The translations under genes and the position numbers were made by a program. Below are positions 3,142 through 5,106 of a stretch of 5,380 nucleotides of DNA, one piece after another. The notes under the pieces are model-generated. The model was given only the letters and a program-made list of their open reading frames with translations. It ran no database searches and had not been told where the DNA came from. This DNA is from a virus (taxonomy: Duplodnaviria > Heunggongvirae > Uroviricota > Caudoviricetes). Each line of letters opens with the position of its first letter. The stretch's first letter is position 1. The stretch lies in the IMG/VR virus record IMGVR_UViG_2667527898_000018. One strand, 5' to 3'.

Positions 3142-3525
3142 ATGACACGCAGAACTCAGTTCAAAGGCAATTCACGTTCTCGTCGTCGTGAGCGTTTAAA
3201 GGTAAAGGCATTAGCTAACGGCGTACTGGCCCGCGAAGAAGCAATAAGTTCAGAAGTATTACACCGCCCTACTCTAAGCAGAGCGCAGATTCAGGCTAAA
3301 GGTACTCACGAAACGCCTGAGCGCATAGAAGACGCTAAGCCAGTTAAGTTCATGGCACAGGACGTGATCTGGCAGCAGAAAGAATACAGACGCAATCTGG
3401 AGCGAGCGACCATTGTGTACGCGAATGAGTTTGGACATAAGCAACCAGAAACTGGTGTATGTCTTCCAAACGTAGCCATTTACGCTGCAGGCTACCGGAA
3501 ATCAAAACAACTGACAGCAAGATGA
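3142..3525 (+). CDS. N: N-family transcription antitermination protein (P22 gene 24-like), 127 aa
   Basis: N-terminal arginine-rich motif GNSRSRRRERLKVKA resembles the P22 N motif GNAKTRRHERRRKLAIER. C-terminus …NVAIYAAGYRKSKQLTAR resembles the recalled P22 N C-terminus (…VALYAAGHRKSKQITAR). Strong RBS AGGAGG at 3131-3136; first gene after OL/PL and the boxB hairpin. Confidence 0.8.
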   Translation: MTRRTQFKGNSRSRRRERLKVKALANGVLAREEAISSEVLHRPTLSRAQIQAKGTHETPERIEDAKPVKFMAQDVIWQQKEYRRNLERATIVYANEFGHKQPETGVCLPNVAIYAAGYRKSKQLTAR

Positions 3526-3586: not shown

Positions 3587-4210
3587 ATGTCATCAATCCG
3601 CTTAACTACGAGAATGAAAGAGGAAATCGCTCGTAACGCTTTAATTAAGTCTGGGGTTTTCACTGAACTTGAAGAAGTAACAAAGTTAAAGAACCAGCTT
3701 GCACTTGACGCCAGAGTTATTGCGTTTGGCGGTAAAAAGAAAACTGAGGAAGTGGATCAGTTATCATCCAAGTTGGTAGCTATAAGTGAAGAACTTGAAA
3801 AGATGGGATGTTCATTTTACTCATACGATGTTAGTTCTACTTCAATTTATCTGACTGTATCTGGCAGAAGGGTTGGATGGCATTCATATGGGAAAGACGG
3901 CAACGGCAAAGATATATTGCTCCCTACTCCGACCAAAGATAAATGCATGTTTGACGCAGAGCACGAAATAACAAAAAGGTTTGATGAAATCTGCGCATTG
4001 CAACAAAAACTTGAAGCCAAGAAAAAGGATATCGAATCAAATGTATGGGCTGCTTTAAACTCAGTCACAACAGTTAAGCGACTTATTGAAGTTTGGCCTG
4101 AAAGCAAAGAATTGCTACCAAAAGAAGCAGATAAAGCAAGTACAGCACTTCCTGCTTTACGGGTAAAAGATTTGAATAAAATGATTGGACTTCCTTCCGA
4201 GGCCGCATAG
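3587..4210 (+). CDS. Hypothetical protein, 207 aa (early-left operon accessory gene)
   Basis: ORF track gives 3527-4210, but the ATG at 3587 has an RBS GAGAGGA (3574-3580) with ~6-nt spacing, so 3587 is the likelier start. Hydrophilic, Lys/Glu-rich, no family recognised. Its stop codon TAG (4208-4210) sits in the loop of a terminator hairpin. Confidence 0.6.
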   Translation: MSSIRLTTRMKEEIARNALIKSGVFTELEEVTKLKNQLALDARVIAFGGKKKTEEVDQLSSKLVAISEELEKMGCSFYSYDVSSTSIYLTVSGRRVGWHSYGKDGNGKDILLPTPTKDKCMFDAEHEITKRFDEICALQQKLEAKKKDIESNVWAALNSVTTVKRLIEVWPESKELLPKEADKASTALPALRVKDLNKMIGLPSEAA

Positions 4211-4226
4211 TCGGCCTTTATTTTTG
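4199..4226 (+). terminator. Rho-independent terminator overlapping the stop codon of the 207-aa gene
   Basis: Stem AGGCCG (4200-4205) / CGGCCT (4212-4217), loop CATAGT containing the TAG stop, followed by TTATTTTTG (4218-4226). Confidence 0.6.
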
Positions 4227-4254
4227 CCATAAACAACAGAATAAACACTGCACT

Positions 4255-4282
4255 GTGTATTCATTCCAACGAGTGAATACAC
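4255..4282. repeat. Perfect 9-bp inverted repeat GTGTATTCA-N10-TGAATACAC
   Basis: GTGTATTCA (4255-4263) and TGAATACAC (4274-4282) are exact reverse complements separated by 10 nt, in the intergenic gap between two terminator-like hairpins. Function unknown. Confidence 0.5.
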
Positions 4283-4344
4283 GGAGCAATGTCGCTCGTA
4301 ACTAAACAGGAGCCGACTTGTTCTGATTATTGGAAATCTTCTTT

Positions 4345-4371
4345 GCCCTCCAGTGTGAGGGCGATTTTTTA
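4345..4371 (+). terminator. Rho-independent terminator-like hairpin upstream of the 122-aa gene
   Basis: Stem GCCCTC (4345-4350) / GAGGGC (4357-4362), loop CAGTGT, followed by GATTTTTTAT (4363-4372). Confidence 0.65.
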
Positions 4372-4390
4372 TCTATGAGGATATGAACAG

Positions 4391-4759
4391 ATGTCAAACA
4401 TCAAAAAATACATCATTGATTACGACTGGAAAGCATCAATAGAAATTGAAATCGACCATGACGTAATGACAGAGGAAAAACTTCACCAGATTAATAATTT
4501 CTGGTCAGACTCTGAATACCGACTCAATAAACACGGCGCTGTATTAAATGCTGTATTAATCATGCTGGCGCAACATGCTCTGCTTATAGCAATTTCGCAA
4601 GACTTAAATGCATATGGTGTTGTTTGTGAGTTCGACTGGGATGATGGAAATGGTCAGGAAGGATGGCCTCCAATGGATGGTAGTGAAGGAATAAGAATTA
4701 CCGATATCGATACATCAGGAATATTTGATTCAGATGATATGACTATCAAAGCCGCCTGA
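4391..4759 (+). CDS. Hypothetical acidic protein, 122 aa
   Basis: Clean ORF with RBS-like GAGGA (4377-4381) upstream. C-terminal half is strongly acidic (CEFDWDDGNGQEGWPPMDGSEGIRITDIDTSGIFDSDDMTIKAA). No family recognised with confidence. A weak hairpin AAAGCCGC/GCGGCTTT (4748-4769) spans its stop codon. Confidence 0.6.
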   Translation: MSNIKKYIIDYDWKASIEIEIDHDVMTEEKLHQINNFWSDSEYRLNKHGAVLNAVLIMLAQHALLIAISQDLNAYGVVCEFDWDDGNGQEGWPPMDGSEGIRITDIDTSGIFDSDDMTIKAA

Positions 4760-4834
4760 GCGCGGCTTTACCGCATACCAATAATGCTTCACGAGAGGCA
4801 TTTTCGTTATGCAATCAAATATAAGGAGTTACCC

Positions 4835-4969
4835 ATGATGCACTTTCAGCTCGCGGGTAGCGGCGTCATGTCCGCTTTCTACCCGCACGAATCTGAATTA
4901 TCACGCCGAGTTAAACAATTAATCAGAGCAGCAAAGAAACAACTGGAGGCGTTATGCGCAATGAAATAG
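4835..4969 (+). CDS. cIII: CIII-like small protein (candidate FtsH inhibitor), 44 aa
   Basis: RBS AAGGAG (4823-4828) 6 nt before the ATG at 4835; the longer track ORF from 4784 has no RBS. MMHFQLAGSGVMSAFYPHESELSRRVKQLIRAAKKQL resembles recalled lambda CIII MQYAIAGWPVAGCPSESLLERITRKLRDGWKRL (M-x-aromatic-x-I/L-A-G, then P-x-E-S-x-L-x-R in an amphipathic helix). Confidence 0.6.
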   Translation: MMHFQLAGSGVMSAFYPHESELSRRVKQLIRAAKKQLEALCAMK

Positions 4970-5106
4970 CCATTAATCACCAGATGCTTCGTGCTGCACA
5001 GAACAAAGCAGTAATAGCCCGATTTATTGGTGATTCAAAAATGTGGCTTGAAGCAAATAAAGCGATGAAATCAGCTATCAACCTTCCGTGGTATCGCAGG
5101 AAATGA
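4954..5106 (+). CDS. kil: Kil-like small protein (candidate host cell-division inhibitor), 50 aa; absent from the ORF track
   Basis: My translation from the ATG at 4954 is MRNEIAINHQMLRAAQNKAVIARFIGDSKMWLEANKAMKSAINLPWYRRK. RBS GGAGG at 4945-4949. It overlaps the 3' end of the cIII-like gene by 16 nt in another frame, as cIII and kil overlap in lambda. IARFIGDSKMWLEA resembles the recalled lambda Kil segment IATFIGDEKMFREA. Confidence 0.5.
   Translation: MRNEIAINHQMLRAAQNKAVIARFIGDSKMWLEANKAMKSAINLPWYRRK

Follow-up and report, generated by a model that had tools for sequence, protein, structure and literature searches.

An ea10 orthologue in a lambdoid early operon: a conserved acidic DUF2528 protein that may bind a host DNA-handling protein

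Results

The open reading frame at 4391-4759 is the orthologue of lambda ea10

The DNA analyzed here is a stretch of 5,380 nucleotides (nt) from the viral record IMGVR_UViG_2667527898_000018 (the whole stretch is termed the window). Its subject is one short open reading frame (ORF), whose small and strongly acidic product was proposed in an initial annotation as a possible DNA mimic or anti-restriction protein. The ORF for a 122-amino acid (aa) product is present on the + strand, with an ATG start, as that annotation had it:

4391 to 4759, + strand: ea10 orthologue (DUF2528 family), ATG start, 122 aa plus stop codon

This ORF is essentially certainly the orthologue of bacteriophage lambda ea10, because 119 of its 122 residues match lambda Ea10, the PF10800 score is 156 bits, and both the spacer in front of the gene and the cIII-kil order behind it are as in lambda. 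The lambda protein (J02459, 33536-33904, annotated as 'ea10 (ssb;122)'; gene lambdap45) and the present copy are 97.5% identical in aa sequence and differ by three conservative substitutions (A50S, Q70S and D84N), so that near identity and gene order agree on orthology. The match to Pfam PF10800 (DUF2528) has an E value of 3.7e-46 and 156.4 bits against a cut-off of 22, and it spans profile positions 1-104 of 104, which places the product within the family. DUF2528 was the sole match in the Pfam scan. The product also matched phrog_646 (PHROG 646, unknown function) at E 9e-70 over residues 1-122 of 122, and no match was obtained with PADLOC or NCBIfam. The current family name at NCBI is plain DUF2528.

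What had been presented as a candidate is an already named lambda gene of unassigned function, which the initial annotation did not recognize. The gene is known and has been on the lambda map for more than 40 years, and the finding itself is ordinary: a specialist would know ea10 at sight, and its presence here, three residues away from lambda, is unsurprising. A tblastn search of phage genomes detected ea10 in ∼200 lambdoid and Shiga toxin (Stx)-converting phages at 95-99% identity. Stx1a-converting phages are the closest full matches. At a nucleotide identity of at least 95%, ea10 is present in 1479 of 5426 complete E. coli genomes. The IMG/VR locus scan returned solely near-identical E. coli copies, which are uninformative on more distant contexts.

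DUF2528 proteins share a glycine-rich loop

In a set of 1.84 billion representative proteins, 592 clusters (50% identity) were assigned to DUF2528 by a profile search at E ≤0.001. Nearly all members are stand-alone proteins of 110-140 residues. Conservation, computed over 145 non-redundant members and numbered as in the present product, was as follows:

Y7, 86%
D22, 91%
F37, 94%
W38, 86%
R44, 86%
F81, 86%
E90, 96%
G91, 95%
W92, 78%
P93, 73%
D96, 91%
G97, 99%
S98, 82%
G100, 99%

D22, F37, W38, R44, E90, G91, D96, G97, S98 and G100 are each conserved in at least 82% of the members, and H23 in 59%. The last eight conserved positions build one loop, E90-G-W-P-x-M-D96-G-S98-x-G100. Positions 12, 20, 24, 28, 33, 42, 107, 113, 116 and 121 follow another pattern: they are acidic in 60-80% of the members, and the residue itself varies. 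Judged from this conservation, DUF2528 proteins appear to pair an overall negative surface with a single specific site that is Gly-rich and partly hydrophobic.

Acidity is a property of the family

The ea10 product contains 23 Asp/Glu and 8 Lys/Arg residues (net charge -15, isoelectric point (pI) 4.23, predicted mass 13.8 kDa), and no other protein in the window is as acidic. The initial annotation had described the C-terminal ∼45 residues as dense in Asp/Glu. The computed pI and charge distribution bear this out, since 12 Asp/Glu and 2 basic residues fall within the last 45 positions (net -10), and 11 Asp/Glu within the first 77 (net -5). If a background of 11.5% Asp/Glu is assumed, the excess has a binomial P value of 0.012 over the full length and of 0.004 over the C-terminal 45 aa. 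The acidity is not restricted to the C-terminus, as the N-terminal hairpin is acidic as well (D10-Y-D12 ... E18-I-E20-I-D22-H-D24). Nor is the C-terminal part a floppy acidic tail: it is predicted to be ordered, with a predicted local distance difference test (pLDDT) score >90, and it holds the most conserved motif of the family.

The Asp/Glu enrichment is real. It is not extreme, because a neighboring helix-turn-helix (HTH) protein (1578-2234) has 14 Asp/Glu within one 45-aa stretch, and the low Lys/Arg content adds as much to the acidity of the ea10 product as does the Asp/Glu surplus. Better evidence than composition statistics for a biological basis of the acidity comes from its retention across DUF2528: the 204 full-length members have a median net charge of -13 (range -21 to -1) and a mean pI of 4.4.

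The predicted fold has no confident match among solved structures

An AlphaFold2 model of the ea10 product, computed with a 58-sequence alignment as input, had a mean pLDDT of 95.5, a predicted template modeling score (pTM) of 0.87 and no segment below 50. The model consists of a β-hairpin (strands 4-11 and 15-22), four helices (28-37, 41-48, 51-70 and 74-79), the conserved Gly-rich loop (90-100), which lies in a long loop after the helices, and a further strand (101-107). The product is thus predicted to be a compact, well-folded, acidic α/β protein.

A Foldseek search with this model gave no match. Among the top 60 fold matches of the model there were 11 SPFH proteins and 6 EF-Ts, none of them confident, and no ArdA was found among the fold matches. 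The BFVD set of viral structures returned one DUF2528 family member and nothing else, and a PDB profile search by sequence returned DotZ only, at chance level (E 0.68). The predicted Ea10 fold is therefore one that has no confident match to any solved structure.

ea10 lies in the leftward early operon, behind a terminator shared with lambda

The + strand of the window represents the leftward early (pL) operon of a lambdoid genome that is like those of Stx phages. The setting that the initial annotation had assumed, an early operon of the PL type, is borne out by the N antiterminator gene upstream (3142-3525) and by cIII and kil downstream of ea10. The features that surround the gene are:

3142 to 3525, + strand: N antiterminator gene, the upstream regulator (Pfam N_peptide, E 1.2e-14; phrog_271, E 6e-38)
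3527 or 3587 to 4210, + strand: Nmad5 gene, 'nucleotide modification associated domain 5' (PF18757, E 1.8e-71; phrog_1965, unknown function)
4285 to 4372, + strand: LPR1-like small RNA (sRNA), approximate; ∼88 nt up to the T-run of the terminator, the 5′-end being an estimate
4343 to 4372, + strand: intrinsic terminator, counterpart of tL2a and 3′-end of LPR1 (terminator scan; 8-bp stem, then TTTTTTAT; identical in lambda)
4377 to 4381, + strand: Shine-Dalgarno sequence GAGGA, 9 nt before the ea10 ATG (read from the sequence; identical in lambda)
4835 to 4969, + strand: cIII gene (FtsH inhibitor family), next downstream as in lambda (Pfam cIII, E 4.6e-30, residues 19-55 of the 4784 ORF)
4954 to 5106, + strand: kil gene (FtsZ inhibitor), overlapping the end of cIII as in lambda (Pfam Lambda_Kil, E 1.7e-20; phrog_2055, E 1.2e-35)

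The lambda gene and the present copy share their length, ribosome-binding site, tL2a/LPR1 spacer and cIII-kil order. The 178-nt spacer (4213-4390) shows only three differences from the ral-ea10 spacer of lambda, despite the differing genes further upstream. In lambda, the terminator tL2a and the Hfq-dependent sRNA LPR1 (∼88 nt, with its 3′-end at tL2a) have been placed in this spacer, and LPR1 is reported to up-regulate the host dnaN gene (10.1101/2024.10.31.621285). An Rfam scan of the window gave nothing above chance; LPR1 was unmatched, and all three hits fell under the gathering scores. Because the terminator sits directly upstream of the gene, expression of ea10 should, by way of lambda biology, depend on N antitermination.

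Upstream of the spacer the two phages differ. The interval between N and the ea10 spacer is occupied by the Nmad5 gene, which probably starts at ATG 3587 rather than at TTG 3527, whereas lambda has ral, orf28 and sieB in that interval. Since the Nmad5 gene takes that place, the present phage lacks ral, the anti-restriction gene of lambda. Straight after the Nmad5 stop codon there is a terminator-like hairpin (4199-4228, + strand; GAGGCCGCATAGTCGGCCTT plus TATTTTTG). A short GCCGC...GCGGC stem (4752-4770, + strand) lies across the ea10 stop codon. Further downstream, the probable cIII start is ATG 4835 with AAGGAG in front of it, and an 8-bp hairpin followed by TTTCG (4783-4802, + strand) is found in the leader just before that start. 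This hairpin may relate to the structural control of cIII translation in lambda.

A three-gene cassette (1294-2635, + strand) is situated between cI and the pL/N region, which is the position of rexA-rexB in lambda. Its first gene encodes a HigB-type toxin (PD-Lambda-2_A match, E 2e-42); its second gene an HTH protein whose match to PD-Lambda-2_B (E 4e-50) is confined to the N-terminal part of the profile (125 of 402 positions); and its third gene a 134-aa protein (PD-T4-9_C match, E 3e-11; phrog_10298). From these matches, the cassette looks like a prophage defence or toxin-antitoxin module that combines parts of two described systems.

ea10 homologues lie in early or DNA-metabolism modules of unrelated phages

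Marker genes were sought in 17 divergent species-level loci: seven were Mu-like, three were lambdoid and seven gave no marker match, five of which were looked at further (all but L123 and L126). In Mu-like transposable prophages the ea10 homologue belongs to the early operon, usually directly after a gene for a MuB-type AAA ATPase and before Mu Gam, GemA and Mor, and the gap to the ATPase gene is sometimes only 1-10 nt. The hosts of these prophages include Salmonella, Serratia, Citrobacter, Burkholderia, Pseudoalteromonas, Oceanobacter, Desulfuromonas and others. BcepMu gp03 and other Mu-like DUF2528 proteins resemble Ea10 in their Pfam family, length (∼120 aa), acidity and conserved motif. 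They differ from it in sequence (33-45% identity) and in the siting of their genes, between the MuB-type ATPase and GemA/Mor genes rather than in a pL operon. The Mu Gam near which they lie is itself unrelated to lambda Gam.

Elsewhere the neighbors are of other kinds. On one metagenomic contig of lytic type, the ea10 homologue overlaps the 3′-end of a gene for a family-A DNA polymerase; a 5′-3′ exonuclease and a DNA ligase belong to the same module. The homologue follows a Toprim primase gene in Pseudocitrobacter, lies near a protelomerase gene in Rheinheimera, and adjoins an HNH endonuclease gene or a C5 methylase gene in Gallionellaceae. What these loci share is placement in an early or DNA-metabolism module; the phage types are unrelated, and the neighbor genes differ by phage.

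Among 72,556 plasmid records, 19 match ea10. All of them are copies with at least 95% identity in lambda-like phage genomes misfiled as plasmids, and 17 are classed as non-mobilizable. Copies with 97.5-98% identity were also found in 'genomes' of Shewanella, Pseudomonas, Neobacillus, Oceanobacillus, Paenibacillus, Bradyrhizobium, Kitasatospora and others (loci L091-L104), often on low-coverage contigs of ∼48.4-48.5 kb. Three of the plasmid hits (H66-H68) are 48,499-48,502-bp 'plasmids' of Stenotrophomonas, Paenibacillus and Salmonella. The copies in L091-L104 and H66-H68 look like contaminating lambda DNA (spike-in or control DNA), and the organisms named do not look like true hosts.

Published work describes an abundant, dispensable protein

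A genome-wide CRISPR interference screen lists ea10, as 'DUF2528 family protein', among the non-essential genes (PMC10695390). Lambda strains with IS10 or oxa cassette insertions in ea10 are viable (PMC2327257), and recombineering prophages that lack sieB-ea10 are in routine use (PMC3961180). An abundant early protein once mistaken for Kil turned out to be Ea10 (PMC3961180). A recent preprint grades the role of ea10 as 'not fully understood' (10.1101/2024.10.31.621285). In a yeast two-hybrid map of lambda, a single Ea10 interaction is reported. Our literature search found no link of ea10 to restriction, defence or any biochemical activity. A block of host replication is said to have been mapped to the ea10 region in Sergueev et al. 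2002; the titles and abstracts that cite this work concern exo-xis, and the point was dropped as unsupported.

Discussion

Ea10 as a stoichiometric binder of a host protein

The reading that we favor, with low confidence (a probability of roughly 0.4), is that Ea10 is neither an enzyme nor a single-stranded DNA-binding protein (SSB), and acts stoichiometrically, as a binder or decoy, on a conserved DNA-handling protein of the host. Ea10 would be an abundant accessory protein that binds a host protein of replication, recombination or repair. Specificity would come from the loop E90-G-W-P-x-M-D96-G-S98-x-G100 together with D22 and R44, and the conserved negative surface might serve as an electrostatic, nucleic-acid-like decoy. 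That Ea10 is dispensable in laboratory hosts would fit a factor for host takeover or counter-defence that is needed only in particular hosts.

We are led to this reading by the abundance and dispensability of Ea10, its conserved negative charge, its one contact-like loop, and its residence among genes for host takeover and DNA metabolism in several types of phage. A stoichiometric rather than a catalytic role is suggested because Ea10 is made abundantly and early (PMC3961180). The partner would be sought in the host rather than in the phage because the neighboring phage genes are unrelated across phage types, so that a shared host partner is the more economical assumption.

Several points weigh against this reading. 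The Asp and Glu residues make up 19% of Ea10, a share well under that of classical mimics such as Ocr. The conserved residues D22, E90, D96 and S98 (often with H23) and the Gly-rich loop could equally make a catalytic or ligand site. Gene neighborhood in the mosaic early regions of phages is weak evidence of function. Finally, the literature search gave neither an Ea10 binding partner nor an experiment that assigns a function.

A wider claim would be that DUF2528/Ea10 constitutes a new counter-host class, with a fold that lacks a confident match among solved structures and with a conserved acidic surface, and that it is a decoy (nucleic-acid-like or like the acidic tail of SSB) for a conserved bacterial replication, repair or defence protein. 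Such a class would account for the carriage of these genes by lambdoid, Mu-like, N15-like and lytic phages of several bacterial phyla, where they belong to early or replication modules. We consider this wider claim doubtful.

Alternative roles

It is unlikely that Ea10 is a small enzyme, or a binder of a small molecule or metal, with a site formed by D22, E90, D96 and S98 (plus H23, N35 and R44) and the Gly-rich loop. The conservation does follow a discrete-site pattern, in which single polar residues exceed 90% conservation and the rest of the protein varies, and clusters of carboxylates with His or Ser are common in metal-dependent or hydrolytic sites. The large amounts of Ea10 that are made, however, would be unusual for a catalyst, H23 is conserved in only 59% of the members, and a net charge of -15 disfavors anionic nucleotides as ligands unless metal ions are present.

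Ea10 might instead assist the replication, recombination or transposition machinery of the phage itself (the MuB-type ATPase, a polymerase or Red). The gene lies directly 3′ of MuB-type ATPase genes, with gaps of sometimes 1-10 nt, overlaps the end of a PolA gene, follows a primase gene elsewhere, and shares its operon with exo, bet and gam in lambda. Yet these prospective partners (MuB, PolA, primase and Red) are unrelated between phage types, which a host partner fits better, and ea10 is dispensable both for lambda growth and for Red recombineering constructs that lack sieB-ea10. We regard such a role as improbable.

The proposal of the initial annotation was that Ea10 acts as a DNA mimic, like Ocr or ArdA, and blocks restriction-modification or another DNA-sensing defence nuclease. 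It was drawn from composition and context only, and we take it as a possibility, albeit a decidedly unlikely one. The charge is suitable (pI 4.23, net -15, acidity kept family-wide), and the alternating acidic residues of the predicted strand β2 (E18, E20, D22 and D24), with D10 and D12, would line one face of the hairpin at spacings of ∼6.5-7 Å. The gene is expressed early, beside other anti-host genes, in a phage that lacks ral and carries the Nmad5 gene instead. Like T7 Ocr (gp0.3) and ArdA, Ea10 is a small, acidic, early protein of a mobile element and is dispensable in permissive hosts. The searches gave no assignment to an unrelated enzyme family, the outcome by which the initial annotation would have seen its proposal refuted.

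The comparison with Ocr and ArdA that the initial annotation had suggested, by structure prediction, revealed no similarity of sequence or fold, and neither family gave a Pfam match. ArdA genes are typically sited in the leading regions of conjugative plasmids and transposons; ea10 is not, being absent from conjugative plasmids, and its 19 plasmid hits are all lambda-like phage genomes. Conservation peaks in the hydrophobic Gly-rich loop G-W-P-x-M-D-G-S-x-G, not in the ladder of acidic residues, and this loop, which has no counterpart in Ocr or ArdA, suggests a specific protein contact. Membership of Ea10 in the Ocr or ArdA family is rejected by sequence, fold and plasmid distribution. Since DNA mimics share no fold, this result lowers the probability that Ea10 is an Ocr or ArdA; it may still work in the manner of a DNA mimic.

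The literature search gave no link to restriction, and lambda already has Ral, which alleviates restriction, and Gam, a DNA mimic directed at RecBCD, for such roles. Lambda Gam is, like Ea10, an acidic (pI 5.5, net -8) early accessory protein of the pL operon, but the two sequences are unrelated, and target and mechanism are established for Gam only.

We consider it very improbable that Ea10 is an SPFH-like (HflK/HflC-like) or EF-Ts-like modulator of FtsH/HflKC or EF-Tu that affects the lysis-lysogeny decision together with cIII. The presence of 11 SPFH and 6 EF-Ts proteins among the top 60 matches and the position of ea10 next to cIII, an FtsH inhibitor, would favor it; against it, Foldseek gave no match, no Pfam Band_7 domain was found, and most family members belong to Mu-like and other phages without cIII.

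The SSB label is almost certainly wrong and is rejected here: it has only inherited annotation in its favor (J02459, and many Stx-phage and BcepMu records), whereas Ea10 has no Pfam SSB or OB-fold match, a predicted fold of three strands and four helices without an OB barrel, a pI of 4.2 that is incompatible with polyanion binding, and no significant BLASTP alignment with E. coli SSB (E 1.4, with a manually entered SSB sequence). The sole resemblance to E. coli SSB is 'PPMD' with an acidic patch, which is similar to the C-terminal tail of SSB. The 'ssb' label has been copied from lambda ea10 to distant homologues, for example BcepMu gp03 (locus L082, 4938-5342), and to many Stx-phage records.

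Significance

Few of the lambda early proteins that are expressed abundantly still lack an assigned function, and Ea10 is among them; DUF2528 is a large family, present in very different phage types, with a predicted fold that has no solved relative. The function of Ea10 now looks experimentally tractable. Defining a partner or an activity would close a gap in the knowledge of the best-studied phage and would correct the widespread annotation as an 'ssDNA-binding protein', which the present evidence contradicts.
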